Sequence record: SRR22947727_1615
Direction: 5' to 3' (one strand)
Length of the DNA: 44,394 nt
Shown here: piece after piece, positions 1 to 13,079 of the stretch
Layout of the letters: each line of letters starts with the position of its first letter
Numbering within the stretch: the first letter of the stretch is position 1
The notes under the pieces: model-generated
What the model was told of the DNA's origin: nothing
Seen by the model: only the letters and a program-made list of their open reading frames with translations
Database searches by the model: none
Made by a program: the position numbers and the translations under genes

Positions 1-522
1 GACGTAACAAATTCGTGCAGTCGTTATCCATTGCGTGACAGCACCATGCTGTTGTTTACGCACTTGTGTGGATTACGTGTTGGTGAAGTAGCTGCACTGC
101 GCTTTGACGACGTATTAGATGCAAACGACACTGTGCGAGACGAAATGACACTAGATGCAGCACGTACCAAGTCCAAACGAGCACGTAAGATATTCCTTCC
201 AAAGCAAATGCAGCGTCAGCTACAAGCATACGTTAGCAGCATCTCTCAGCGCTCAAAGCACGGTTATTTGTTTTCTACACAAAAGAGTGCAAGGTTTAGT
301 GCGAACACTGCTACACAACATCTACAACGCTTGTATGCACGTGCTGGAATTGCTGGCGCTACGTCACACAGTGGCAGACGCACTTGGTTAACTACGTTAA
401 GTCAGAAAGGTGTTTCAGTGTTTGTGTTAGCTGATATGGCTGGACATCGTAGCATTCAGACAACTCAGCGTTACGTTACAGTCAATGACGAGATGAAGCG
501 TAATGCTGCTGAATTGATTTAG
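1..522 (+). CDS. Small catalytic-domain-only tyrosine recombinase (5' end outside the window)
   Basis: Frame open from base 1; motifs GLRVGE, TKSK, SHSGRR, AGHRSIQTTQRY give R-K-H-R-H-Y; paralogous to 6111-6680. Confidence 0.92.
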   Translation, partial: DVTNSCSRYPLRDSTMLLFTHLCGLRVGEVAALRFDDVLDANDTVRDEMTLDAARTKSKRARKIFLPKQMQRQLQAYVSSISQRSKHGYLFSTQKSARFSANTATQHLQRLYARAGIAGATSHSGRRTWLTTLSQKGVSVFVLADMAGHRSIQTTQRYVTVNDEMKRNAAELI

Positions 523-1754
523 ATAACTTCAATCGTGCCATCTTCTCTGCGTCTGTAGTCAGCTACAGCGTTGGTTAAACGTATTTCGTCGTTAAGGTGG
601 TAATACGTTTTTTCAATCTGCGCCACGCTAGTGCCACACATATCTGCAATCTTCCTAAACGTTAAGCCACTCATAATACGCTGCGTAATCATAAAGTGAC
701 GTAGGCTGTAGGGAACTAAGTCACGTGTTTCCCTATCTGCAATATCAGCTAACTTAATCATCTTGTGGAAGTGGTATAGCAGCGTACGTTTGCTTAGTTC
801 GTTCTCGTTATCCACTGTAAAGATAAGTTCGTCAGCAGTTTTAGGTTTAGATATTTCACGCAAGCGTTCAAAGTACTGTCCATTGCGACACAAGAAGGTG
901 CGACTTGTACGCACTTTACTTGTCTCAGCGCGAACGTGGATACGTGCAAGCTTTTGTTGTTCGCCATTCACTTTGTGCTGTTCAATCTGCACATCACTCC
1001 AACGTAACTGTCGCTGTTCGCCAACTCGTAAACTACTGTTAGCTGCGATTAGCACGTAGTGCTGCACGATTTTTCGCACTCTAAGTTCTGTATCATCTAT
1101 GTTGTTGTGTTTGGCAGTATAGGTACGCATAGCACGGTACAGTGCTTCGTATTCATCGTTAGTTAGTGTTGCACGACGAATAGCTTCATTGCCTTTATCT
1201 AAGCGTGGTAGCTTCTTAAAGTCGAAGCCATCGATGTGTGTTTCGCCATTCTTATGCAGCCACTTCATCAGTGCATTAATTGTGCTTTGTTCGTTTTGCA
1301 CAGTGACTTGTTTGACGTTGCCGTTTGTAGCTTTGTGGCGATGGTAGAAGTAGTTTTCGCAGTCAGTGCGTTCTAATTCTTTCAGCTTAGTGTCTTTGCC
1401 AATGTAGCTTAGAAAGTGCTGTAAGTGCGTTGCGATTGTTGTGTGTCGTCCTTTGACTATGTGTCCAAGTTCAACGTCTCGCATACGAAAGCTAAGATAC
1501 TTCTCCACACCTTCTTTTGTGGTTATGGAGAAGTAGGATTTACCTTGTTGCAGATTAGCGTAAATCTCTAAGTACGCAGCTTTACCCTTTTCAATTGCAG
1601 TAGCTTCGCTGCGTGTGCGTAGGCTTTTACGTGCGTACTTGTTTTCTTTTGGCAACCACATACGAAACTGCCAATACTCACCTCGCTTGTAGATACAAGC
1701 TTCGTCAAATATGGCTATTTCGCCTTCAGCGAATTGCTGTTTCTTCAGTGCCAA
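519..1754 (-). CDS. Tyrosine integrase with N-terminal arm-binding-like domain
   Basis: 411 aa; WQFRMWL...KSLRT N-terminus, SLRVGEQRQLRWSDV, TSKVR, YSLRH, CGTSVAQIEKTY; adjacent to att site; TTG start. Confidence 0.92.
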   Translation of the reverse strand: MALKKQQFAEGEIAIFDEACIYKRGEYWQFRMWLPKENKYARKSLRTRSEATAIEKGKAAYLEIYANLQQGKSYFSITTKEGVEKYLSFRMRDVELGHIVKGRHTTIATHLQHFLSYIGKDTKLKELERTDCENYFYHRHKATNGNVKQVTVQNEQSTINALMKWLHKNGETHIDGFDFKKLPRLDKGNEAIRRATLTNDEYEALYRAMRTYTAKHNNIDDTELRVRKIVQHYVLIAANSSLRVGEQRQLRWSDVQIEQHKVNGEQQKLARIHVRAETSKVRTSRTFLCRNGQYFERLREISKPKTADELIFTVDNENELSKRTLLYHFHKMIKLADIADRETRDLVPYSLRHFMITQRIMSGLTFRKIADMCGTSVAQIEKTYYHLNDEIRLTNAVADYRRREDGTIEVI

Positions 1755-1795
1755 ATCTTAGTCTCTGAGTTACTACGAGTTTCAGTAGTCACACG

Positions 1796-1879
1796 TTTGT
1801 GCAACATTTTGTGTAACTTTATGAAAAAAGACTAAGGAAATCAACGATTGATTTCTCAGTGTGAAAGTAATGTGTAAGT
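1796..1879. repeat. Putative integrase arm-type sites of the distal element (two direct-repeat pairs)
   Basis: TTTGTGCAAC (1796) / TTTGTGTAAC (1808) and TGTGAAAGT (1860) / TGTGTAAGT (1871); spacing and distance to the core mirror 8130-8211. Confidence 0.65.
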
Positions 1880-1917
1880 CAATAATTAAATTAAATCAAT
1901 AACATAAACTAGAAAAA

Positions 1918-1932
1918 CTACTCCCACTCAAT
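1918..1932 (-). repeat. att core: displaced copy of the guaA 3' end (hybrid junction between the two elements)
   Basis: Minus strand ATTGAGTGGGAGTAG = I-E-W-E-stop; 14 bp identical to 8252-8265. Confidence 0.92.
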
Positions 1933-1975
1933 AATACCTATATTGTAAGTCATTGTTATTAAATATCGTTCTATA

Positions 1976-1998
1976 TACTTTGTAAGTACTTTGTAAGT
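1976..1998. repeat. Arm-type tandem repeat at the distal end of the proximal element
   Basis: TACTTTGTAAGTACTTTGTAAGT identical to 8189-8211. Confidence 0.85.
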
Positions 1999-2062
1999 CA
2001 GCATGGTACTCTGCTTTGCAACCAATCTCTATGCATCACTACTCATTTGCAATAGAAACATA

Positions 2063-2093
2063 GCAAGTGGATACAAACCTTGCATCCACTTGC
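2063..2093 (-). terminator. 14-bp-stem hairpin; probable terminator of the 2121-2597 transcript (or a recombination site)
   Basis: GCAAGTGGATACAA-ACC-TTGCATCCACTTGC; the single mismatch is a G-U pair on the minus strand; followed by TATGTTTCT on the minus strand. Confidence 0.55.
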
Positions 2094-2120
2094 ATCAAGC
2101 ACTTTTAGCCAGATAAACCT

Positions 2121-2597
2121 CTAACGTGAAACCCACACAGCGTTCACATTCCCGTAAGCAGAGATGGAAATAGTTTTATCAAACTTATCTCTGAAATCTT
2201 TTGCATACTGTTTGTTATAAGACGAGCCATAGTAAATGTAGCCCCTCTTAGTCGCAAACCCGTCGCTTCCGCTTACCTCTATAGTAGAGATTTCGGCGCA
2301 TTTGCCTTGATACAATAGTCTTGCTCTCGCTTTTTTTTGGGGGCGGAGGTTCTGCTCATAGATGTTTGTTTGTTGAATAAATGCATTATCGATATCCAGC
2401 ATGTCTAAACTAAACATCGCATTCGTGAAAAATGTATCCGTTTTATTGTCCATCTCCCAAGAGATATGGGCAAATTTTTCCATAGTTTGTTCACATTTCA
2501 GAAACTTAAGATTAAATTCTGCGTAAGCTGTTTGCGGCAATAAGGCGATAAATGTTAGTAAACACGCACTTTTGATTTTCACTGAACGCTTCGGCAT
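2121..2597 (-). CDS. Hypothetical secreted/periplasmic protein (cargo)
   Basis: 158 aa; basic N-terminus, hydrophobic stretch and A-Y-A signal peptidase I site; AGGGA RBS. Confidence 0.75.
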   Translation of the reverse strand: MPKRSVKIKSACLLTFIALLPQTAYAEFNLKFLKCEQTMEKFAHISWEMDNKTDTFFTNAMFSLDMLDIDNAFIQQTNIYEQNLRPQKKARARLLYQGKCAEISTIEVSGSDGFATKRGYIYYGSSYNKQYAKDFRDKFDKTISISAYGNVNAVWVSR

Positions 2598-2713
2598 CTC
2601 ATGTTCCCTTGTGTGTTATTGTTGTTCTGAAAAAGTATCATTATGGTATATCGAGTCAAGTCTTGAATAGATAATAAACTTGCATCCACATTTTCAATGT
2701 CATTGTAAGCAAG

Positions 2714-2890
2714 TTAGCCTTCCAACTGCTTCATCGCTTTGCCTCTTATATCACCTTTTGTAAGGTTGAATTCGAGTATCAGTCTCTTAACTGTAGCAAC
2801 TGCCTCTTTCTTGTGTGCTTTCACTGCCTTCTTTTCTTCTTCAGCAAGTGCTTTTTGTTCTGCGTGTATCTCTGCTAGTGAACGTACCAT
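2714..2890 (-). CDS. 58-aa truncated H-NS-like protein (N-terminal oligomerisation region only); not in the ORF track
   Basis: Hand translation MVRSLAEIHAEQKALAEEEKKAVKAHKKEAVATVKRLILEFNLTKGDIRGKAMKQLEG; GAGGAG RBS; starts 15 bp after the upstream stop. Confidence 0.75.
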   Translation of the reverse strand: MVRSLAEIHAEQKALAEEEKKAVKAHKKEAVATVKRLILEFNLTKGDIRGKAMKQLEG

Positions 2891-2905
2891 TGTAGTCTCC
2901 TCTGT

Positions 2906-3682
2906 TTATCCAAACTTACCTTCAGCAACATTGCGTATCGCATCTACTGCTGTCTTCTTTTTGCGTGTGACAGCGACTGAGATTGTTCTTCGTTCGTCTG
3001 CCACAGTCATTGCTTGCTCATTTAGCGTATCTTCTTTGCGTTTTACAACTAAACCAACACGCTTCGCTATAACATAGTTGGAAAGTTTAACATTGTTACG
3101 TTCTTTGTTAAGCAACATTTCATACATATTAAATGCCATCTTGTATGTCTCAACATTGATAGGCTTGGATAACTTATATCGTGCATTAGAACGATTAGGG
3201 TTGCGTGTCTGTCTCCCTCTTTCGAACGTCATCTCTTTTGCAAAGATGCGTTCAATAGCAACATCAATCTGTTTGCGTGTAAGTGATTTAGGTATTCGTA
3301 TCAGCAAACTACTCACATCTTCAGACGACTGTATTGCTGTATCTCTGTCTTCAACAAGCATCACTTTGTTAGGGGTAGGGGCTTCAGCAAACAGATACTC
3401 ACCACGTGTCTCTGTGTCACTTACCTTACCTCTCCACCACTTTGTGAATGCAAGATACTTGTCACCTTCATAGCGTACATCACCAAAGTCTTCATACACT
3501 TGTCTAATACTGTCATTCGTTTTGAAACGATTTGCTGATGGATTGCTACAAATCTCAACGTAATCTGAGTTAAGAGTAAGTGCTAACCACCAATAGAAGT
3601 ATGGAGATTTTTCAATCTTACTTGCGATTGGATTGGCATAACTTCCAAAGGTTGGATGCTGTGTAATGAAGTATCTACGCAT
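2906..3682 (-). CDS. Hypothetical protein, putative transcriptional regulator with C-terminal HTH-like segment
   Basis: 258 aa; SPYFYWWLALTLNSDY, VYEDFGDV, FTKWW motifs; LSNYVIAKRVGL helix-turn-helix-like. Confidence 0.7.
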   Translation of the reverse strand: MRRYFITQHPTFGSYANPIASKIEKSPYFYWWLALTLNSDYVEICSNPSANRFKTNDSIRQVYEDFGDVRYEGDKYLAFTKWWRGKVSDTETRGEYLFAEAPTPNKVMLVEDRDTAIQSSEDVSSLLIRIPKSLTRKQIDVAIERIFAKEMTFERGRQTRNPNRSNARYKLSKPINVETYKMAFNMYEMLLNKERNNVKLSNYVIAKRVGLVVKRKEDTLNEQAMTVADERRTISVAVTRKKKTAVDAIRNVAEGKFG

Positions 3683-3979
3683 ATCTAATAGCCACTGAGT
3701 TTGCTTGCACTGTTCTCACTCTATCGGTGTTTCTGTTATCAGCAATTAAATCTTTTATTCAGCGACAGACTACCAACGTCTATTTTTATGAGATGATGTG
3801 TATATCGTCACATAAACAAGTAGAAAAAGTCGAGCGTACTGAAGTGTTATCACTCATCAAAATACTTAATCAGCGTTGGAATAGGAAACACTGTTTTTGT
3901 GCGATTATAGGTACATGGTTAAGCAAACGTTTAGCTAAAACTTAAAGAAAATTAAACGACTTCAAATTAAAAAGGAAAA

Positions 3980-4168
3980 ATGGAAATGACACACGCAGAA
4001 AAGTTAGATAATTTAGCTAGGTTGAAAAAGACTATGGCAAAGTATGAAGCACAAGCAGAGAAGTTCAAAGACACTAGAGAATTGCTTGCTAAATTTGGCA
4101 AACAACACGGCTACTGGCACTTAGGTAGTAAAATCAATCTCTTGGAAAAAGAATTAGGTTTTAGGTAG
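3980..4168 (+). CDS. Small basic helical hypothetical protein
   Basis: 62 aa; AAAGGA RBS directly upstream; divergent from 2906-3682. Confidence 0.65.
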   Translation: MEMTHAEKLDNLARLKKTMAKYEAQAEKFKDTRELLAKFGKQHGYWHLGSKINLLEKELGFR

Positions 4169-4343
4169 ACAGCGCAATGACAAATGAATTGAGATAGTTA
4201 TGCCTACATGAGTGATTGTATAGCTCACAGGTATTTTGATACAGCAAAACTATGCCACTCAGTTATTCTGTCAAATACCCTATCGCATGATATAAAACCG
4301 TACGTTCTTGTGCGTTTTTCGTGTGGTAGGTGTTGTGGCTGCG

Positions 4344-4748
4344 TTAGTTCGATAACGTTCCAACACTTCCTTGTGGCTTGATTGGCTGACTTGCTGGTTG
4401 CTTTGCCATAAAGTCATTGCGTACATTTTGAATATCGTTTGCTGATGTTGATGTAGAAGACACAGCATTGGATGTTTGTAAGTTCTTAGACTTAGGTGTT
4501 GGAGGAGGGGTAATAGAAGGAAAGTTCTTTACCTTCTTTGCTTTACTCTTAGCGTTTGGCTTGTACTTGATTGCGTCATTGTCATTAGCATTCAAACTCT
4601 TTGCGACACGTGTGTTTATTCTATCACTCAAATCCTTTGTTGCTGTTGTAAGCGTTAGTAAGTCATCCATAGTGTCTGCTAAAGTTGCTTCAAAACTCTG
4701 TTGTTTGACAATATCAATCAACTTTCTCATTTCATTTTTGTAATCCAT
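4344..4748 (-). CDS. Hypothetical protein with Lys/Pro/Ser-rich disordered C-terminal half
   Basis: 134 aa; AAGGA RBS; N-terminus MDYKNEMRKLIDIVKQQSFEA. Confidence 0.75.
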   Translation of the reverse strand: MDYKNEMRKLIDIVKQQSFEATLADTMDDLLTLTTATKDLSDRINTRVAKSLNANDNDAIKYKPNAKSKAKKVKNFPSITPPPTPKSKNLQTSNAVSSTSTSANDIQNVRNDFMAKQPASQPIKPQGSVGTLSN

Positions 4749-4854
4749 TGATGGTGTTCCTTAAAAGAGAGGTGGTGTAAAACTTGGTAGGGTGATTAGA
4801 TTTTGAAAGTACAAAAAACTGCACAGCAGATTTTTCTGACTGCAAATACCTTTT

Positions 4855-5199
4855 TCAATGTACTGTTGCCTTTGTCTTATCTTCCATCAAACGCATCCAC
4901 TTTGATGTGCTGTTGTCACAGATAATCAAGTCAAGTTTAGAAGAGTAGTTTGCAAATACGCTTGCCAACTCTGTCATCTGTGTTGTGTTCTTCTGCTGTA
5001 GCAACTTGCTGTAGTGCTTGAGTTTGCTACTACATACTGCCAAAGCATCAGTAGAAGGTTGCTTGTTTACGTGTTTGAGATAACGCACATACCCTTCGCT
5101 TCTGTTCAGCCAATCCTCGTAAAACTCTCGTTTTGTATCAACTATTCCTATGTTGGATAGCGTATTGAATATTTCGTTCAGTGCTGTCTGATTTTCCAT
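4855..5199 (-). CDS. DUF6626-like HTH-type hypothetical protein
   Basis: 114 aa; LNEIFNTL..GIV.TKREF..DWLNRSEGY....K....PS.DAL pattern recalled for DUF6626; GGAG RBS. Confidence 0.6.
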   Translation of the reverse strand: MENQTALNEIFNTLSNIGIVDTKREFYEDWLNRSEGYVRYLKHVNKQPSTDALAVCSSKLKHYSKLLQQKNTTQMTELASVFANYSSKLDLIICDNSTSKWMRLMEDKTKATVH

Positions 5200-5280
5200 T
5201 TCTACTCCGTTTGTTTCTAACTTGGATAAATAAATGTGCGTTAGAAAATACGCACAATGTATTTATGTGGATTATGAAAA

Positions 5281-5772
5281 ATGAAGTTCAAAACGAGTTA
5301 TGAAGTAGAAGCGTGTCAAAAGATGAAAGAGGCTGTTGGAGAGTGGATTAATACTCAACGCTTTCCACTCTTTGGTACGGCAACCTATCGTCATCCACAT
5401 CATATAAGAGTTGAAAAGGCACACAGAGATGCATCACACTTTACAAGGCTTTTAAGTAGAAAAGTATTAGGCAAGCACTCAGTAGATAGACAAGGCAAAT
5501 ACCTAACAACAATGATGTTCGTAGAACAAGGCAAAGACAGACGCAACACTCACATACACTTCTTCATCAAAGGCTACACCCTCAAACACACCAAAGGCAT
5601 AATCTATAACGCTAATCGTATTTGGAAATCTAAGATAGATAATGCGTTAGACGTAATGATATTAGACGAACGTGAGGCAGAGAGGCGTACATACACTATG
5701 AAGGAACAACTTGCTTTGGATGATGAGATAATAAGTCCAAAAGCGTGTTTCCTTCCACACCTTATACCATAA
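5281..5772 (+). CDS. Minimal HUH endonuclease (rolling-circle Rep/relaxase-like)
   Basis: 163 aa with the three RCR motifs in order: FGTATY (I), E....THIHFFI (II, HUH), YTMKE (III, YxxK). Confidence 0.75.
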   Translation: MKFKTSYEVEACQKMKEAVGEWINTQRFPLFGTATYRHPHHIRVEKAHRDASHFTRLLSRKVLGKHSVDRQGKYLTTMMFVEQGKDRRNTHIHFFIKGYTLKHTKGIIYNANRIWKSKIDNALDVMILDEREAERRTYTMKEQLALDDEIISPKACFLPHLIP

Positions 5773-5862
5773 GACAAAGACATAACGAGTAAGACTATAG
5801 TTTGCTACGCACTACCTAATGCACTTAGGGTAAATCCTTACAAGTATTTATAGAGAGATTTT

Positions 5863-5897
5863 AATAGCGTGTTTTGAAATATTCAGAACACGCTGTT
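5863..5897 (+). other. 16-bp-stem hairpin downstream of the HUH gene (terminator or origin hairpin)
   Basis: AATAGCGTGTTTTGAA-ATA-TTCAGAACACGCTGTT; both mismatches are G-T pairs on the + strand. Confidence 0.65.
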
Positions 5898-6110
5898 CTT
5901 GTAAGTACAAACACTACTCACACACATACAACTCAAACACACACAGTGAGTACATCATAGATACAATGTAAGGAAATATACAAAACATTACATTATCAAA
6001 TAACCAACTGAGATTGTTGATGAATATTTAGGACATCATATTGGTAGGAAGTAGAAACATAAGAAAGTAGTTTGTTTGTAGCGATATTATTACATTTTGA
6101 GGTGATTGTG

Positions 6111-6680
6111 ATGAAACAAGCAAAGGTACTTACTGACAAGGAACTTAAGAAAGTCATTGGCTACATTGATGCGTTTGACAGACACGCAGAACGCAACAAA
6201 GCAATAGTGCTACTTACACACTACTTAGGCTTACGCATATCTGAATGTGCAAGTCTGCTTGTCACAGATGTAGTGAATGACGAAGGTACAGTGAATGATG
6301 TTATTCTTCTTTCTGTTGAACAGACAAAAGGAAACAAGAGTAGAAGGGTATTTGTTAGCAAGAAGGCAAAGTCAGTACTTAAACAGTATCTGCAAAGCGA
6401 TTTAAGCGTCATACAGCACACATACTTATTCCAAACGCAAAAGAGTAAGCGTTTCAACACCAACGCACTGACGCAACTTGTAAAGCGTTTGTATGACAGA
6501 GTTGGTGTAGTTGGTGCAAGTTCGCACAGTGGCAGACGCACATTCATTACGAAACTCGCTACAAGTGGTGTAAGTGTGCGTGTGATTGCTGAGGCTGTTG
6601 GACACTCATCTATTGCTACTACACAGCGTTATATTGATGTGAATGACGAGTTGATTGGCAATGCTGTGGAACTTATATGA
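6111..6680 (+). CDS. Small catalytic-domain-only tyrosine recombinase
   Basis: 189 aa from ATG 6111 (GAGGTG RBS); GLRISE, TKG, SHSGRR, VGHSSIATTQRY. Confidence 0.93.
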   Translation: MKQAKVLTDKELKKVIGYIDAFDRHAERNKAIVLLTHYLGLRISECASLLVTDVVNDEGTVNDVILLSVEQTKGNKSRRVFVSKKAKSVLKQYLQSDLSVIQHTYLFQTQKSKRFNTNALTQLVKRLYDRVGVVGASSHSGRRTFITKLATSGVSVRVIAEAVGHSSIATTQRYIDVNDELIGNAVELI

Positions 6681-6835
6681 TGCGTAAGTCAAAGCACAAG
6701 TTAGAGAAAGAGTTGAAACGAGAAGAACGACACAAAGAGTGGATTAGGAAGAACTTGCGAAACACTGATATAGAACTAAAAAATCAAAAGAAGTTGCTGT
6801 TGCTATACACTAATCTCCGTACGCATCAGACATAG
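6677..6835 (+). CDS. Possible 52-aa highly basic protein coupled to the small recombinase
   Basis: ATGA overlap with the recombinase stop; MMRKSKHKLEKELKREERHKEWIRKNLRNTDIELKNQKKLLLLYTNLRTHQT. Confidence 0.35.
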   Translation: MMRKSKHKLEKELKREERHKEWIRKNLRNTDIELKNQKKLLLLYTNLRTHQT

Positions 6836-8117
6836 CAACAATGTTTCCATTGATATTCATATAACGCTTTGTAGCAAAGGTACGCTTCTCATCATCACTT
6901 ACGTGTTTATAGACTTTCTCAATCTGCTGTATGGATGTTCCACAGTGATGTGCAATGCTATCAAAACTTGCTCCACTGAGTGACATATTCGTAATAAACA
7001 TATGACGAAGACTATAGATGACTAAGTCGCCTCTTCTGTCATACGCAATGTTTGTCATCTTCATAATGTTGTTGAAGTGATGGTTTAGTCTTCTGTTGCT
7101 GTACTCACTACCATCAACACTAAACACAAAGTCTTCTTCACTTGTTTTAACAGCACATTCCTTTTGAATATTCTGCCATCTCTCAATGTACTTGCCACAG
7201 TTAGCATATAAAGTGCGTGGTATTCTCACCTTACTCGTTTGTGCTTCAACTCTTATACGAGCAAGTGAGTAGGGCTTTTGCTTGCTATCGACGTGTCTTT
7301 CAACACTTACATTCTTCCACTTCAACTGACGAAGTTCGCCATTTCTAAATCCACTGTTTGCCATCACTAATAGGAAGTGTCGTGCTAACTGTTTCTCATA
7401 ATACTCTTCAACACTTGGATTGTTCTTCTTTGCACAATACGAACGCATAGCAACATAGAACGTCTGCCATTCCTCATTTGTGAATGTCTGTCGTCTTATC
7501 TCTTCGCCACTGTCATCATACTTTCTGCTTTGTATCTTAGGTACTTTGAATGCAGATATATCAGATAGTGCTTCTGTGTGTTCGTGTAAGAAAGTCATAC
7601 AAGCATTGATGCTTGCTATCTCATTTCTGATTGTACTGTCAGCAATGCTTTTGCGTTTTCGAAACAGTTCGTAGTCTATTGTTTCTCCCTCTCGTTCGTA
7701 CGAAAGGAGTGTGTTGATGCTTAAGTCTTTCACTTTCGCATCTTTATGTACGTACTCTAAGAAGTGCTTCATATGTGCTTTGATTGTTGTAAGTCTGCCT
7801 TCAACAATGCCATTTGCACCAACTATACCAACGTACTTTGCCTTGTCTTCAATATACATCTCTACTGCTTTTTTGATGCTTATTGAGTAGTACTTCTTAC
7901 CTCTACGCTTCATATACTTAATGTCTTCGTACAACGCTTCAGCATCAGCAATGGCTTTTGCTTTGTCTTTAGTACGTAGAGATTGGCGAATGTATTTGTC
8001 TTCGTCTGCTAACCACATACGAAACTGCCATACATCATAGTCATTTTGGTAAATGACTGCTTTGCTGTTGTAGATGCGTACTTCGTTCTTTGGCATATCA
8101 ATCACTATGAAACGCAA
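6810..8117 (-). CDS. Tyrosine integrase of the proximal element (start may be ATG 8096)
   Basis: WQFRMWL...QSLRT, SGFRNGELRQLKWKNV, TSKVR, YSLRH, CGTSIQQIEKVY; homologous to 519-1754; next to the guaA att. Confidence 0.93.
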   Translation of the reverse strand: MRFIVIDMPKNEVRIYNSKAVIYQNDYDVWQFRMWLADEDKYIRQSLRTKDKAKAIADAEALYEDIKYMKRRGKKYYSISIKKAVEMYIEDKAKYVGIVGANGIVEGRLTTIKAHMKHFLEYVHKDAKVKDLSINTLLSYEREGETIDYELFRKRKSIADSTIRNEIASINACMTFLHEHTEALSDISAFKVPKIQSRKYDDSGEEIRRQTFTNEEWQTFYVAMRSYCAKKNNPSVEEYYEKQLARHFLLVMANSGFRNGELRQLKWKNVSVERHVDSKQKPYSLARIRVEAQTSKVRIPRTLYANCGKYIERWQNIQKECAVKTSEEDFVFSVDGSEYSNRRLNHHFNNIMKMTNIAYDRRGDLVIYSLRHMFITNMSLSGASFDSIAHHCGTSIQQIEKVYKHVSDDEKRTFATKRYMNINGNIVAMSDAYGD

Positions 8118-8129
8118 TAGTGCGTAGAG

Positions 8130-8211
8130 TTTGTAAGTTTCTTTGTAAGTACAACAAAAAAACTCAACAAAGTCAAAGAGTGATTTATTACTTTGTAAGT
8201 ACTTTGTAAGT
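8130..8211. repeat. Arm-type sites of the proximal element (four TTTGTAAGT copies in two pairs)
   Basis: TTTGTAAGT at 8130, 8142, 8192, 8203. Confidence 0.85.
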
Positions 8212-8226
8212 GCGCTTTCACATATA

Positions 8227-8239
8227 AATCAATAGTTTA
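8227..8239 (+). promoter_or_regulatory. IHF-binding consensus in the att arm
   Basis: AATCAATAGTTTA matches WATCAANNNNTTR; a one-mismatch copy (1894-1906) lies the same 24 bp from the other core. Confidence 0.6.
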
Positions 8240-8250
8240 GCGCACTTTCC

Positions 8251-8265
8251 TTACTCCCACTCAAT
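8251..8265 (-). repeat. att core within the guaA 3' end
   Basis: ATTGAGTGGGAGTAA (IEWE-stop), repeated at 1918-1932. Confidence 0.92.
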
Positions 8266-9807
8266 CGTCCCTGGTGGCTTAGAGGTAATGTCATAGGTCA
8301 CCCGGTTGATGCCTTGCACTTCGTTGATGATACGCGTGGCTGTTTCGCCGAGGAATTCATGGGAAAACGGGTAGTAGTCCGCGGTCATACCGTCAACGGA
8401 TGTCACGGCCCGCAGGGCGCAGGCGAAATCATAGGTTCGGCTGTCGCCCATAACGCCCACGGTGCGCACCGGTAGGATCGCGACAAAGGCTTGCCAAATT
8501 TCGTCATACAGACCGTGCTTGCGGATTTGATCAATGTAGATGGCATCGGCACGCCGCAAAATCTCCAGCTTCTCGCGGGTAATTTCCCCTGGGCAGCGGA
8601 TGGCTAGGCCGGGGCCAGGGAAGGGGTGGCGGCCTATGAAAGAGGCAGGCAGGCCCAACTCGCGGCCCAAGGCGCGCACTTCATCTTTGAACAGCTCACG
8701 CAAAGGCTCCACCAAGCTCAAGCCCATTTTTTCCGGCAATCCACCGACATTGTGATGCGACTTGATGGTCACCGATGGTCCGCCCGAAAAGCTGACGCTT
8801 TCAATGACATCGGGGTACAAAGTGCCCTGAGCTAGGAATTTGGCACCCCCGACATCTGATGCATGTTTTTGAAACACATCGATAAACAACTTCCCGATGA
8901 TCTTCCGCTTGGTTTCCGGATCAGATTGACCATCCAATGCGCTGAGAAAAAGCTCCTTCTCATCGGCATGGATGAAGGGCATATTGTAGTGATCGCGGAA
9001 CATACCGATGACCTCTTCGGCCTCGCCTTGGCGCAACAAGCCGTGGTCGACAAAAACACATGTCAGCTGGTCACCAATCGCCTCATGGATCAGAACCGCA
9101 GCAACAGAGCTGTCAACGCCGCCCGAAAGGCCGCAGATCACCTTTTGATCTCCCACTTGATCGCGAATAGCCTGTAGGGCCTGCTCGCGGTAAGCCCCCA
9201 TGGTCCAATCGCCGGTAAATCCTGCACGGCGAATGAAATTCTCATAGAGTTTTGCCCCTTTGGGGGTGTGATGCACCTCTGGATGAAACTGCACGGCGTA
9301 AAATTCGCGGGCCGGGTCAGCCGTCACTGCAAAAGGTGCATTGGGAGAGGTGCCATAGACCTCGAACCCCGGCGCAATGGCGCTGACATGATCGCCATGG
9401 CTCATCCAGACCTGCTCGTCGCCCTCTTCAAACCAGCTTTCCAGAAGGCTTAGGGGGGCCTTTGGGCTCACATAGGCGCGGCCAAATTCCGCTGTTCCAT
9501 GCCCGCGTTCCACTTTACCGCCCAGACAGTGCATCATCACCTGTTGGCCATAACAAATTCCTAAAACCGGAATATTCATCTCAAACACAGCCATTGGAGG
9601 GCGTGGGGAGCCTTCATCAATCACGGAGGCAGGCCCGCCCGAAAGGATCACAGCTTTGGGCGCAAACTGCTGCAAAAACTCCTGCGTTACATTCTGAAAC
9701 GGGTGTATTTCGCAATATACATTAAGCTCGCGCAAACGCCGCGCGATAAGTTGCGTAACTTGACTGCCAAAGTCGATGATGAGTAATTTTTGATGCATAT
9801 GTTCCAT
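8251..9807 (-). CDS. guaA: GMP synthase (glutamine-hydrolysing)
   Basis: [41 protein letters not shown]. Confidence 0.99.
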
Positions 9808-9961
9808 AGCCCCCGATATTCTGACCTTTAAAAAGGTTCAACCCAAGGAGAGAGAAGATTTTACAACTTATGTCGTTTTCCCGTCCGAAGTGGCGGAAAT
9901 TAACGTCGCTTGGTTGAAGAAATGCCTAGAAGCAACGTAACAATCAGTTAGGGGTTTCAAA

Positions 9962-11503
9962 ATGTCCGAGACACGAGCGCGCAGATCACGCAGCGGCGGT
10001 GGCGCCGCCCGCCGAGCCGAACGCACAGCGGTGAGCGTCGAAACAGAACGCTATATTGAGCGCAATATCCCGCTGTATGAGTTCTTGGACGAAGCAACAC
10101 TTGAAATCATCGAGTATAATGCGGAAACCGTGCTTGAAGAAATCGGGGTGAACTTTGTGGACAGCCCGGAAGCCCTAGAGCGTTGGCGCTCAGTTGGGGC
10201 GACCATTGAGGGCGAGCGTGTTCGGATCCCGCGCGGTCTTGCGCGCGAGCTGTGCAAAACGGCGCCGTCGAAATTTGTGCAACATGCGCGCAACCCTGAG
10301 CGGAACGTGGAAATTGGCGGCAAAACTTTGGTGACGGCGCCCGTCTATGGCCCGCCCTTCGTGCGCGACCGCGATGGTGGCCGCCGGTATGCAACTTTGG
10401 CTGATTTTCAAAAGTTTGTGAAATTGGGCTATATGTCAAAATATCTGCACCATTCCGGCGGGACCGTTTGCGAACCCACCGATGTGCCGGTTAACAAGCG
10501 CCATCTGGATATGCTTTTGACGCATATGGTGTATAGCGATAAGCCGTTCATGGGGTCTGTGACCGAGCCAAGCCGCGCACAGGACTCCGTCGAGATGTGC
10601 GAAATTTTGTTTGGCAAAGAGTTTGTACAAAACAACACCGTGATGACATCGTTGATCAATATTAACAGCCCGCTCACCTTTGACAGCATTATGATGGGCG
10701 CCTTGGAGGTTTTTGCCTCCAACAATCAGGCCAGCATTATCTCGCCCTTCATCGTAGGTGGGGCGATGGCGCCGGTGTCGGTCGTGGGCACATTGACCCA
10801 GGTTCTGGCTGAAGTTTTGGCGGGTATCGCCTATAGTCAAATCATCAAGCCCGGGGCTCCCGTGATCTTTGGCACATTTGTCACCTCCATCGACATGAAC
10901 TCCGGCGCACCTACCTTCGGCACGCCAGAGGCCAGCCAAATTCTTTACGGAGCCGGGCAGTTGGCCCGCCGGATGAACTTGCCGTTTCGCTCAGGCGGCG
11001 GGCTTTGCGGCTCGAAATTACCCGACGCGCAGGCGGCTTATGAGACCGCCAATACGCTCAACGCCGCGCTTTTGGGCGGGGTCAACTTTATGCTTCACTC
11101 CTGCGGTTGGCTGGAAGGTGGGCTTGTGGCGTCCTTTGAGAAATTCGTTATGGATGCCGACCACCTCGGCACTCTGCAGAAAATGGGACTTGGGGTCTCA
11201 GCTGATGAAAACGGCCAAGCCATGGATGCCATCCGCGAGGTTGGGCCAAGCGGCCATTACCTCGGATGTGACCACACGCAAAAGAACTTCAAATCTGCGT
11301 TTTGGCGGTCGAATTTGTTTGACTACAAGCCCTTTGAGACCTGGTACGAAGAGGGCGCGCGCGACACCTATAGTTTGGCCGCAGAGCGCGTGGCCTCTCA
11401 ATTGGCCAACTATCAGCAACCGCCGCTCGATCCTGAAATTTTGGCGGCGCTTGAGAAATATGTGGCCGACAAAAAAGCGGCGATGCCCGACGCTTTTGTC
11501 TAG
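9962..11503 (+). CDS. Trimethylamine methyltransferase (MttB) family protein, non-pyrrolysine
   Basis: 513 aa; RRARRSGGG N-terminus, SDKPFMG, NINSPL, GAPTFGTPE, GWLEGGL; no internal amber codon. Confidence 0.92.
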   Translation: MSETRARRSRSGGGAARRAERTAVSVETERYIERNIPLYEFLDEATLEIIEYNAETVLEEIGVNFVDSPEALERWRSVGATIEGERVRIPRGLARELCKTAPSKFVQHARNPERNVEIGGKTLVTAPVYGPPFVRDRDGGRRYATLADFQKFVKLGYMSKYLHHSGGTVCEPTDVPVNKRHLDMLLTHMVYSDKPFMGSVTEPSRAQDSVEMCEILFGKEFVQNNTVMTSLININSPLTFDSIMMGALEVFASNNQASIISPFIVGGAMAPVSVVGTLTQVLAEVLAGIAYSQIIKPGAPVIFGTFVTSIDMNSGAPTFGTPEASQILYGAGQLARRMNLPFRSGGGLCGSKLPDAQAAYETANTLNAALLGGVNFMLHSCGWLEGGLVASFEKFVMDADHLGTLQKMGLGVSADENGQAMDAIREVGPSGHYLGCDHTQKNFKSAFWRSNLFDYKPFETWYEEGARDTYSLAAERVASQLANYQQPPLDPEILAALEKYVADKKAAMPDAFV

Positions 11504-11521
11504 GGCATTGGCCTTTGGTCC

Positions 11522-11803
11522 TTAGGTCTTTTTAAGACTGCCGTATTCTGCCAATATGGCAATAAGATATCGGATGTGGCGCGCTGGGGAATACTCAGCG
11601 CGCTTTTCTTTGCGCAATCGGTTGTAGGTCTCTTCAATGTCCAACAAACAATCGAGTTGGCCGGTTTTGCTGCGATGAAGCGACCCTCCTAAGAGCACCG
11701 GAAGATGGCGGCTGGGATCATAACTGGCCAGCCCATTGCGTGCCGCCTCTAACATGAGCTTGGGGCGTTTCAGAGTGTTCAATCTAAGTTCAATGTGCCG
11801 CAT
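11522..11803 (-). CDS. DUF6477-like protein, homolog of R. capsulatus rcc01866 (GTA-associated)
   Basis: L..LKRPKLML.AAR.G...Y...RHL and YSPARHI..LIAILAE; divergent from the gafA-like gene. Confidence 0.75.
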   Translation of the reverse strand: MRHIELRLNTLKRPKLMLEAARNGLASYDPSRHLPVLLGGSLHRSKTGQLDCLLDIEETYNRLRKEKRAEYSPARHIRYLIAILAEYGSLKKT

Positions 11804-11937
11804 GACGCACCTCCATTTTGAGAATCAACCCTTAGGCTGGCACAGGTGCCTAGGGTGTTGCGTCTCGCGGCGTTTGGCGTTCGGTCAATTCATAGATCGG
11901 CTAATTTTATCCATCATTCTTGGAGGCTTAGAGCGAA

Positions 11938-11952
11938 TTAACCAAGGCGTAA
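11938..11952. promoter_or_regulatory. CtrA-box-like site upstream of gafA
   Basis: TTAA-CCAAGGC-GTAA, one mismatch to TTAA-N7-TTAA. Confidence 0.45.
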
Positions 11953-12044
11953 TAATTATTACCATAATACTAATGCAACCTGTGAAAAGATTGGTGTCTG
12001 GAGTGCGTATCTCACAATTTGACTTTTCGAACGGTCGAGGCGGC

Positions 12045-13079
12045 GTGCCACATTCGAAAATGTCTGTCTGGATACCTCATGCGGTCAAGCTATATCTGGC
12101 CCATACAGAGCATGGACATTCTATTCGCAGTTTGGCCCGGTATTCTGGTGTTCACCCGTCAACGGTGTCGCGCTCTGTCCGCAAGATTGAGACATTGCGT
12201 GACGATCCTCTTATCGATCGCGCGGTCCAAGAATTGAGCAAATACTGCTTGGAATCAGCGCCTCGGCGCTTGGAGGATAAACCCATGAGCTTTCACAACC
12301 CCGATCCAAATCCCCCGTGCTACCCAGCTTCGCTGGATGCGCCGAGCATCACCGCCTTGCGGTATTTGGCACGAAAAAATACCGTCTTGGCTTTGGCGCA
12401 GGGGCTTGAATTGGCGGTTATTGTTCGTGAGGCGGTTCAAGGACAGGTTGAGAAATTGGACACGCTTGATCGGGCGCAGGTCATGGCCATGACCATGCAA
12501 GATTGGCTCAAATGTGACGATCCGCAAGCGCGGATCATGCGCTTTCACCTTACAGATGTCGGTTTAAAACTGCTGGCAAGACTGGAGGAGGCCGACACGA
12601 ATGACACAGACGGCCGAGAGGGCGGGCCCTCCGATCCCGTCAGCCGTGGGCGATTGCGCTACGGCCAGGCGATCAGCCCGGTGCACTCTTTGGCGCGCCG
12701 TCGCAACAAAGATGGCGAGCCATATATTTCACGCAGCCTTGTGAAACAGGCCGAGCGGTTACGGGAGGATTATGAATTGGCGCTGCTCGAAAGCAACGCG
12801 CCCATCGATTGGCTCGGGGCCATTCGCTCCGGTTTGAGCCGGAAGTCTCAGGCGCCCGCGGCCTCAGCGCTTTATCGCGCGCGCTCCGCTTTGGCAGATT
12901 TGGGACCAGGTCTTGGCGATGTGGCGCTGCGCTGTTGTTGCCGGCTCGAGGGGCTTGAGGCCGTGGAGCAGACCATGGGTTGGTCAGCGCGCTCTGGCAA
13001 AATCGTGTTGCGCATTGCTCTGCAAAGGCTGGCGCGCCATTACGAAGACACGCAGGCGGCTGAAGCCTTGGTCGGTTAA
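12045..13079 (+). CDS. gafA: GafA-like GTA activator (N-terminal HTH, C-terminal DUF6456); start uncertain (12003-12060)
   Basis: YLAHTE.G.SIR.LAR..GVHPSTVSR.VRKIE..RDDPL; LGPGLGDVALRCCC.LEGLE..E..MGWSARSGKIVLRIALQRL; located between guaA and lipA as described for gafA. Confidence 0.8.
   Translation: MPHSKMSVWIPHAVKLYLAHTEHGHSIRSLARYSGVHPSTVSRSVRKIETLRDDPLIDRAVQELSKYCLESAPRRLEDKPMSFHNPDPNPPCYPASLDAPSITALRYLARKNTVLALAQGLELAVIVREAVQGQVEKLDTLDRAQVMAMTMQDWLKCDDPQARIMRFHLTDVGLKLLARLEEADTNDTDGREGGPSDPVSRGRLRYGQAISPVHSLARRRNKDGEPYISRSLVKQAERLREDYELALLESNAPIDWLGAIRSGLSRKSQAPAASALYRARSALADLGPGLGDVALRCCCRLEGLEAVEQTMGWSARSGKIVLRIALQRLARHYEDTQAAEALVG

Follow-up and report, generated by a model that had tools for sequence, protein, structure and literature searches.

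What kind of mobile element occupies the 3′ end of guaA in the DNA stretch SRR22947727_1615, and how might it move between cells? The window, by which we mean the whole 44,394-nucleotide stretch that was analysed, contains at positions 1919–8265 an AT-rich unit of 6,333 bp, hereafter E1. An earlier note made from the sequence alone had proposed that this unit represents an undescribed family of satellite-like elements that excise, amplify by rolling circle, resolve multimers with a small recombinase and travel with a helper, probably a lytic phage. With moderate confidence, we favour the reading that E1 is an intact, reduced member of an unnamed AT-rich integrative rolling-circle family of approximately 4.5 to 8.6 kb that lives in marine Alpha- and Gammaproteobacteria. 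Of the earlier interpretation, the conserved module, the lack of fit to the tested families and the strain-level presence and absence of the element all held up, while rolling-circle copying and multimer resolution keep the standing of deductions.

A repeat search placed the exact 14-bp direct repeat TACTCCCACTCAAT at 1919–1932 and again at 8252–8265, with a spacing of 6,333 bp. The second copy is the guaA-proximal attachment (att) core and supplies the final codons and the stop of guaA, which the listing of open reading frames (ORFs) places at 8251–9807 on the minus strand; the first is the distal core, at the junction with a neighbouring element that we call E2. The G+C content of E1 is 0.382, compared to 0.545 for the remaining window. 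The closest genome compared, G001, is a complete 3.3-Mb genome of the same species and not the window's own assembly; it is 100% identical to the window from 8255 onward and has no match to 1–8254. Its guaA site carries neither E1 nor E2, and because the guaA stop codon there is TGA and not TAA, the crossover must lie within the shared core. Contigs of four sequencing runs mapped to the window were Logan contigs, from which rare forms are dropped. In run X1, a contig runs along the E2 side as far as 1932 and then passes straight into the 13 letters after 8265, an E2–guaA joint free of E1; E1 is therefore a separate unit, present in some cells and absent from others. The exact repeat and the element-free site in G001 bear out the precise bounds that the earlier note had given the element, and these observations establish its boundaries, its target site and its presence or absence between strains, and support excision at the population level. 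Chance would put 0.73 copies of the octamer TTGTAAGT in the window; there are 11, of which 10 lie inside E1, all on the plus strand. Three (at 1943, 1980, and 1991) fall in the distal att arm (1933–2000, plus strand), and four in the arm next to the integrase (8131–8211, plus strand). The sequence of the distal arm is also conserved at relatives' junctions. The clusters in both arms resemble arm-type integrase sites and may act as such. The window contains no tRNA gene, and an Rfam scan of the window returned no match.

Which genes does this unit carry? The nine ORFs of E1, all of which are open, were scanned against Pfam (E ≤ 0.01), PHROGs, and NCBIfam; the scans covered ORFs of 58 aa and longer. 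Nearest to guaA is a tyrosine integrase of 435 aa (6810–8117, minus strand; PF00589, E 6e-11; phrog_1, E 3.8e-25), versions of which in the relatives L004, L007, and L017 are 96–98% identical. Convergent with it is a second tyrosine recombinase of 189 aa (6111–6680, plus strand, alternative start at 6072) that consists of the catalytic domain only and matches PF00589 over residues 5–179 (E 2e-32). A 163-aa HUH protein (Rep; 5281–5772, plus strand) with conserved motifs has two stem-loops directly adjacent to it, and divergent from it is a DUF6626 protein (4855–5199, minus strand) that matches PF20331 (E 4.7e-26; 91.5 bits against a gathering cut-off of 27.3). These four assignments agree with those of the earlier note. 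Its remark that genes for a type IV secretion system (T4SS), coupling protein, primase, helicase, terminase and capsid are lacking likewise stands: none was found in the nine ORFs with any of the three libraries.

The idea of a rolling-circle element depends on the 163-aa protein. Its motifs FGTATY (residues 31–36), HIHFF (91–95), and YTMKE (138–142) appear in that order and are conserved in alignments A1 and A6; an HUH motif before the tyrosine is the motif order of Rep proteins, not of relaxases. Across 33 distant relatives H91 is invariant and H93 nearly so, with a motif-I FGT before them and after them a conserved motif III, Tyr-x-x-Lys/His-Glu, the consensus of which is Tyr-x-x-Lys-Glu. 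Homologues amount to 20 clusters in a set of 5.8 billion proteins, all metagenomic and none named, and a profile search of 1.84 billion representatives returned only 51 proteins at E ≤ 0.001, of 57 to 225 aa. The one family that recurs is PF23343 (REP_ORF2-G2P), which matches 15 of the 33 relatives (best E 2.3e-6) and the Rep of E1 itself at E 5e-4 (20.7 bits, below the 27.8 cut-off). An AF2 model (pLDDT 80) shows a β-α-β-β-α-β core followed by a C-terminal helix. A Foldseek search of this protein against the PDB gave no match at E ≤ 0.001, and its best match in BFVD, a set of predicted viral structures, is an ORF2/G2P-domain protein (E 3.6e-4, TM 0.53). Among the 50 BFVD matches listed, 13 are named, nine of them replication proteins; the names include three microvirus replication initiators, a "putative Rep", a "replication gene A protein" and a rudivirus replication protein, along with a capsid and a transglycosylase. 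The motifs and matches together identify the protein as a predicted HUH-Y1 rolling-circle initiator of the ORF2/G2P type. A transposase of the IS200/RAYT type was considered and rejected, given the constant position of the gene in the backbone and its matches to the ORF2/G2P family only. One distant relative, P0188 in alignment A6, runs on into a stretch resembling the C-terminal part of a tyrosine integrase (PF00589, E 9e-5), either through fusion or possibly through mis-assembly of the gene call.

Is there an origin for such an initiator to act on? The gap of 338 bp between the Rep and small recombinase genes includes an origin-like non-coding block (5802–5906, plus strand) that is conserved in an alignment of 10 relatives; it opens with an invariant GCTACGC, which is followed by two hairpins and a copy of TTGTAAGT at 5899. 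In hairpin A (5815–5829) one pair is U-A in six relatives and C-G in four, and in the 14-pair stem of hairpin B (5866–5894) two pairs are maintained via double changes. Both stems are preserved by compensatory changes over the 10 relatives, with a variable loop or spacer, and the plus strand of the block folds better than shuffled sequences (z −2.3). A Rep whose motifs are intact, with conserved hairpins next to it, leads us to infer that the element is amplified by rolling circle. In double-stranded form, hairpin B reads as an 11-7-11 palindrome approximately 215 bp upstream of the small recombinase gene; its arms are conserved and its spacer differs between subfamilies, so that it has the layout of a tyrosine-recombinase core site and may be one.

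Arg, Lys, His-x-x-Arg, His, and Tyr make up the motif rule of tyrosine recombinases, and these conserved positions are readable in the small recombinase. Its identity to relatives is 75–97% in 19 metagenome loci, where the integrases range from 22 to 98%, and 63–69% in the genome loci L021–L023; it goes with the Rep backbone, not with the integrase. The palindrome upstream and the constant company of the Rep backbone suggest that it would serve in multimer resolution. The protein aligns end to end with the NCBIfam models of tyrosine-type DNA invertases of 198–200 positions (E 4e-8 and 2e-6) and resembles FimB and FimE in being without a separate N-terminal DNA-binding domain. However, it scores far under the cut-offs of the invertase models, its best catalytic-domain scores are with Xer-type models (E 1.5e-30), and no invertible segment was found. 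An inverted repeat (6619–6645 and 6848–6874) was rejected as a recombination site, since it reflects the homology of the two convergent recombinase genes in their C-terminal coding sequence. Similar small recombinases occur on plasmids: in the Azospirillum plasmid pAB510d (L042, 7001–8331) a 190-aa "site-specific integrase", 45% identical to the small recombinase of E1, is convergent with its neighbour with a 4-nt overlap, and in Legionella plasmids (L043) such genes flank a Mu-like transposase/ATPase pair.

Could the type of Rep point to a filamentous phage as the helper? ORF2/G2P is the initiator domain of plectro- and inoviruses and the sole family that Rep resembles, and conserved hairpins adjoin the gene. 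A satellite of the RS1/TLC kind would use Rep to make single-stranded circles and the hairpin as a packaging signal for a helper inovirus. RS1 and TLC, satellites of the Vibrio cholerae filamentous phages, need a helper to form particles and rely on the XerCD of the host acting at dif; they have no integrase or second recombinase of their own. E1 is like them a small integrated element with an inovirus-type HUH initiator as its main enzyme, but it has its own guaA integrase in place of dif/XerCD use as well as a second recombinase, and no coat-like or single-stranded-DNA-binding gene was recognised in it. A Zot-type ATPase was found in neither of the two related complete genomes searched, G001 and G315. 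We therefore regard a filamentous-phage satellite as very doubtful.

If E1 belongs to a family, its genes should recur together, as the earlier note had expected. Nineteen metagenome loci were gathered with the Rep profile, and for each gene we counted only the loci whose contig reaches its position. In all 19, the order p134–DUF6626–Rep–small recombinase–integrase is kept as far as the contigs extend, p134 being a conserved backbone protein of 134 aa. DUF6626 was present in 17 of 17 assessable loci, the small recombinase in 15 of 15, a convergent integrase in 13 of 13, and p134 in 16 of 16, although in two of these it was detected with blastp alone. A further conserved protein of 258 aa, p258, is intact in 8/11, with one fragment in addition, and is absent from L012 and L016. 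These metagenome loci and the genome loci described below share the backbone, so that the homologs do co-occur as a conserved module.

The integrase behaves as an exchangeable part of this module. Three types were found (96–98%, about 44%, and 22–26% identical to that of E1), and L013 and L014 combine backbones that are 97% identical with unrelated integrases. Next to the integrase lies guaA in L005, L006, and L012, and a guaA-type half-site persists as a fossil in L016 (226–240) and L021 (14032), both of which have other integrases. In L016, what lies directly beyond the integrase end is the 3′ terminus of another host gene, one rich in G+C.

Which hosts carry the family? The Rep profile gave no confirmed relative in 185,579 species genomes, a search that missed divergent Reps (29–40% identity) later found in three genomes via p258. 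The spread of p258 is far wider than that of Rep, with 320 clusters at E ≤ 0.001 among 524 candidates, and the p258 scan of species genomes returned 10 loci. A metagenome-assembled genome (MAG) of the Rhizobiaceae group carries a 7,348-bp unit with the same backbone at guaA, flanked on both sides by the same core. The cultured Marinomonas transparens C1424 (L023) carries a 7,621-bp relative at the same guaA core, with a Rep that is 29% identical, and a Marinomonas MAG holds the full backbone with another integrase. The guaA site is thus used in Alphaproteobacteria or their kin (the window, L005, L006, L012, and L022) and in Gammaproteobacteria (L023). Across hosts of the two classes, p258 is 57–75% identical and element G+C stays at 34–38% whatever the host, which suggests horizontal spread by efficient transfer. 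The family is rare among reference genome samples: DUF6626 occurs in 6/301 of the class, and the p258 profile matches 7/401 of the order, one of them strongly. G001 has two distant cousins at other sites (L039 and L040), islands of approximately 10 kb with a G+C content nearer to that of the host. Both contain distant versions of the backbone (a small recombinase at 41% identity, the ATPase pair described below, a p258-like protein, DUF6626, and a p134-like protein); L039 has a 208-aa relative of Rep (E 4e-10), and L040 a 509-aa integrase the gene of which overlaps that of the small recombinase by 4 nt. In another distant cousin, L030, a small serine recombinase of the Resolvase family (1495–2121) takes the place of the small tyrosine recombinase.

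Is E1 then complete? Between p258 and p134, relatives have a variable slot of 2.2–2.8 kb, of which E1 retains 313 bp (3906–4218, plus strand; blastn against L004, L005, and L008) with a 62-aa ORF (3980–4168) that has no Pfam family at E ≤ 0.01. In the relatives, the slot encodes a conserved protein of about 129 aa together with one of two sets. The first is a protein of about 310 aa, in some cases accompanied by one of about 170 aa; the second consists of an approximately 285-aa protein invariably paired with an AAA ATPase of about 230 aa. The ATPase (L005 3507–4214; L013 1942–2622; L021 8071–8769; L022 8292–8981) resembles the clamp-loader subunits of phages (phrog_168, E 7e-24), being 26–27% identical to those of large lytic phages. 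E1 is thus a reduced member of the family. Its layout is no isolated case: the 313-bp slot is spanned by contigs from the runs X1 and X2, and the reduced form therefore circulates. The metatranscriptome run X14 gave contigs over 26 of 30 bins, from a kind of sample in which DNA may be present.

The loss of the slot module and the debris that gathers at the guaA site, described below, could also mean that E1 is a decaying, immobile remnant that persists only as an island. We consider this improbable: the nine ORFs are open, Rep, DUF6626 and p134 are 94–97% identical to those of larger relatives such as L003–L006, and the core and both att arms are intact. Moreover, smaller members that are also without p258 exist, at guaA in L012 and with another integrase in L016, and the same slot layout appears in the contigs of the two other runs.

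The left-hand neighbour of E1 bears on how such units accumulate. E2 has a small tyrosine recombinase (1–522, plus strand), an open-ended ORF with its 5′ end beyond the window that is 46–48% identical to the small recombinases of the family, and a 411-aa tyrosine integrase (519–1754, minus strand; PF00589, E 8.5e-12; phrog_1, E 9.5e-28) that is about 40% identical to E1-type integrases. The two genes are convergent and overlap by 4 nt. By these identities, E2 is a second, diverged sister element in tandem to the left of E1 that continues past the window start. Neither this partner nor the reduced state of E1 figured in the earlier note. An integrase or arm of another element also lies on the left in L004 and L005. 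At guaA in L006, which is part of a 136-kb metagenome contig, an array (2484–12962) consists of an 8.6-kb element and fragments of 1.3 and 0.56 kb, all bounded by cores; one of the fragments contains part of a p134-like gene. The guaA site of G001 (L001 1029–1515, the same as L051 15694–16180) holds an AT-rich fragment of 473 bp with a 111-aa ORF between two att cores. Arrays and debris are thus usual at this site. In L020, a small serine recombinase of the Resolvase family (2738–3628) lies directly past the att core.

Do free or repeated forms exist? L013 closes on itself within one p58 codon, p58 being a conserved 58-aa protein; after removal of a 5-nt overlap the ORF is intact across the joint, and the unit measures 7,362 bp. 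L018 has a terminal overlap of 202 nt (201/202 identical) and a unit of 7,109 bp, and in L014 the integrase is followed by p58 and p258, host DNA being absent from the interval. All three contigs cross the junction of integrase arm, core and distal arm, and break elsewhere. The closed contigs L013 and L018 fit circles or identical tandem copies.

Based on these results, we propose the following cycle for E1. The 435-aa integrase would bind the TTGTAAGT arm repeats and recombine the 14-bp core with the conserved terminal codons of guaA, a reaction through which it would both insert and excise the element, and successive insertions would give rise to tandem arrays. Rep would copy the excised circle from the conserved hairpin region with the help of host replication proteins, and the small recombinase would act at an element-internal site, most likely the 11-7-11 palindrome, so that copies stay monomeric. 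DUF6626, p134, p258, and p58 would be control proteins. Between cells, the element would travel as a hitch-hiker on a carrier encoded elsewhere: it has no transfer genes, and it occurs in two classes with its 57–75% identical p258 and low G+C, so that something else should carry it.

Hence we infer that a helper is needed, and a helper is likely. Like the Zot ATPase, a VirD4-type coupling protein and an HK97-type capsid were found in neither G001 nor G315 (0/2 each), and resident helpers of those kinds are therefore missing from these two genomes. Such absences speak mildly against resident conjugative, filamentous or gene transfer agent-type helpers, and leave incoming phages or passive routes. 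Searches of virus and plasmid collections were negative: relatives of Rep or p258 were not found in 2.9 million IMG/VR contigs, Rep (tblastn) and DUF6626 had no match in 50,697 phage records, and Rep (tblastn) had none in 72,556 plasmid records. The IMG/VR absences are weak evidence because a capsid-less element is probably not listed there.

Could the carrier be a virulent tailed phage? A satellite of this kind would excise upon infection, form rolling-circle concatemers and be packaged by the headful in helper capsids, in the manner of PICMI or VEIME. The size of E1, its marine habitat, the lack of capsid genes and the tandem or closed units all match what the cited sections of the PICMI and VEIME descriptions report, and since the three helper-type genes are missing from both related genomes, the helper would be external. 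The cargo of relatives points the same way. In the cargo position, Wzz is found in two of them, an acyltransferase-SGNH protein in one and a polysaccharide lyase in one (L021 12606–13769; L022 10884–11648; L023 10803–12839; L004 1143–2072), products that alter surface polysaccharide, and surface-polysaccharide genes are common in phage-linked elements. The resemblance of the slot ATPase to clamp-loader subunits of large lytic phages adds to this side. L021 has a Mutator-family transposase as well. On the other side stand the searches of IMG/VR and the phage records and the E1 scans, which revealed neither AlpA nor a primase, terminase or pac-like feature. In addition, single-tyrosine HUH initiators usually release monomers, not concatemers. 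We think a tailed-phage satellite unlikely, although worth serious attention. A wider version of this reading, unlikely to a similar degree, would make the family a new marine satellite class with a Rep of the single-stranded-DNA-phage type, an exchangeable integrase and a backbone recombinase, in which a virulent phage triggers excision from guaA, capsids give the ride, and cargo and slot genes fend off or exploit phages. In a bolder variant, and by analogy with integron integrases acting on attC, the small recombinase might even act on the folded single-stranded hairpin that rolling-circle copying produces.

How does E1 compare with the phage satellites already named? In the cited sections of its description, PICMI is defined by int, alpA and a primase (DUF3987/DUF5906) next to fis in Vibrionaceae (PMC10803314). 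As reported there, the likeness to E1 lies in a size of approximately 6 kb, a marine habitat, a tyrosine integrase, short flanking repeats, the lack of capsid and packaging genes, a replication function of its own, and few genes. Of the three defining genes, E1 has only the integrase (PF00589 in 6810–8117). Neither AlpA (PF05930 or PF12728) in the nine ORFs of at least 58 aa at E ≤ 0.01 nor a DUF3987/DUF5906 primase in the E1 scans was detected, and the replication candidate is the HUH protein; E1 also differs in residing in guaA and not next to fis, and in its second recombinase. PICI, cf-PICI, P4-like elements, and PLE have genes for packaging or for redirecting capsids (terS, capsid, sid/psu) and a primase-helicase, none of which was found in E1 with Pfam, PHROGs, and NCBIfam. 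RIT elements consist of three adjacent tyrosine recombinase genes in one orientation, unlike the two convergent genes of E1. The defining features of PICI, P4, and RIT thus fail in E1, as the earlier note had judged from their canonical layouts. VEIME is an operational class of elements recovered as concatemers in virions, for which its authors, in the sections cited, suggest plasmid-like rolling-circle copying (PMC9618062). Elements so described measure from under 5 to 16.8 kb, are integrated in marine bacterioplankton including Alphaproteobacteria and have no capsid genes (PMC9618062), all in likeness to E1.

Tycheposons bring in a further rival to the helper-borne cycle. In the cited parts of their description, these are small marine integrase-plus-replication elements that form arrays at hot spots and carry cargo but no capsid or transfer genes, in likeness to E1, and they differ from it in their tRNA targets, lineage-specific recombinase, and primase, helicase, or polymerase modules (bioRxiv 10.1101/2020.12.28.424599). 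Neither guaA, the target of E1, nor rolling-circle copying, for which E1 has its HUH Rep, is mentioned in these parts. The same parts of that source report excised forms and tandem junctions in some subpopulations, and passive spread was proposed for the cargo type. By this precedent, E1 could be an integrated rolling-circle plasmid with no dedicated helper, spread by vesicles, transformation or generalized transduction. No gene of E1 indicates a specific helper, and closed-unit contigs appear in bulk metagenomes, both of which would suit such a plasmid. The occurrence in two classes, with its 57–75% identical p258 and stable low G+C, suggests efficient transfer and counts against it. On balance, we find passive spread rather unlikely.

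Might a co-resident conjugative system move the element instead? As an integrative mobilizable element (IME), E1 would use the HUH protein also as relaxase and the hairpin block as oriT. Precedents are given in the cited portions of a review of such elements: 118 of 144 streptococcal IMEs encode relaxases related to rolling-circle initiators, Rep_1 initiators are able to mobilize plasmids, and the tyrosine-integrase IMEs ATE-1, the IncP island, and GIsul2 use the guaA 3′ end and, like E1, have no T4SS (PMC5704250). Streptococcal IMEs share with E1 an HUH initiator as the only DNA-processing enzyme; however, the families named in these portions are Rep_trans, Rep_2, PHA00330, and Viral_Rep, compared to an ORF2/G2P-like one in E1, and GIsul2 and the IncP island carry RepA/RepC, of which E1 has no family (PMC5704250). 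The documented cases cited are all from Firmicutes. No MOB or T4SS family was found in E1 with Pfam and NCBIfam, a VirD4-type gene is absent from both G001 and G315, Rep is without a match in the plasmid records, and the E1 integrase has no close relative in the same 72,556 records, where its best match is 24.6% identical. We judge an IME highly improbable. In the open-access literature, no description of the element family was found, the guaA papers being concerned with streptococcal or general integrative conjugative element (ICE) and IME biology. This agrees with the earlier claim of an undescribed family: the family is apparently unnamed and, by the features tested, lies outside PICMI, PICI, P4, RIT, tycheposons, and GIsul2. 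E1 is a kind of small integrative hitch-hiking element that may be a satellite.

Several observations weigh against our preferred reading of E1 as an intact member of a rolling-circle family. Closed contigs can arise from identical tandems, and arrays of unlike copies are common (the window, L004, L005, and L006); L019 has the unit of L018 (7,108/7,109 identical) with array-like ends that are 481/539 identical. The circle joint of E1, from 8251 back to 1933, was not seen in the Logan contigs of the four runs, which lose rare forms, and no excisionase was recognised. Rep of E1 falls below every curated Pfam threshold, its PDB matches by VIA are generic ferredoxin-like folds (Z up to 8.9, with SIRV1 ORF119 at Z 7.2 and rank 35), and L022 has no Rep ORF. 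The slot module, present in most larger relatives, is absent from E1, and distant cousins (L030 and G315) retain the ATPase pair without a clear Rep; the essential engine may thus be the slot module and not Rep, and E1 could be a crippled element. Finally, the target assigned to the small recombinase is our guess from symmetry alone.

Small elements without capsid or transfer genes are now thought to make up much of marine mobile DNA, yet a defined gene set or laboratory model exists for only a few of their families. The family of E1 offers a clear backbone, the gene order of which is constant across the relatives examined, a near-universal landing site in the last guaA codons of hosts of two classes, and integrase modules that are swapped while the rest of the backbone stays 97% identical. 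A full member resides in the cultured M. transparens C1424, so that excision and replication can be tested directly and a helper can be searched for.

The remaining proteins of E1 are less informative, and here several assignments of the earlier note found little or no backing. p134 (4344–4748, minus strand) has a helical N-terminus, a low-complexity tail and no significant family, its single NCBIfam match (E 0.0064) scoring 15.5 bits where the cut-off is 737; the "phage-head-like leader" once ascribed to it is unsupported in Pfam, PHROGs, and NCBIfam. The cargo protein of 158 aa (2121–2597, minus strand) belongs to no family. It does have a signal-peptide-like N-terminus, and this by-eye reading is the sole basis for calling it secreted. 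PADLOC returned nothing meaningful for the slot proteins, p258, or the cargo. p258 (2906–3682, minus strand), a candidate regulator, has no Pfam family; among 26 members only DUF3141 recurs (8 members, best E 0.005). Its AF2 model (pLDDT 70) gave a best Foldseek E of 1.2, and the best VIA match, to RovC, is not significant at Z 4.8, a score on which a RovC/FseA-type activator was rejected. The profile search of p258 against the PDB returned nothing, and the Atlas lead, PF20109, covers 14% of one cluster. The helix-turn-helix (HTH) that p258 had been said to bear comes down to weak fold resemblances (Z 2.5–2.8) in the C-terminal part. Similarly, the description of p58 (2714–2890, minus strand) as a truncated H-NS went too far, since Histone_HNS_N matched only 4 of 10 family members, each time below threshold (best E 0.028), and the p58 profile has no match in the PDB. 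It is a conserved helical protein with copies 43–84% identical in relatives, and is possibly like the N-terminal domain of H-NS.

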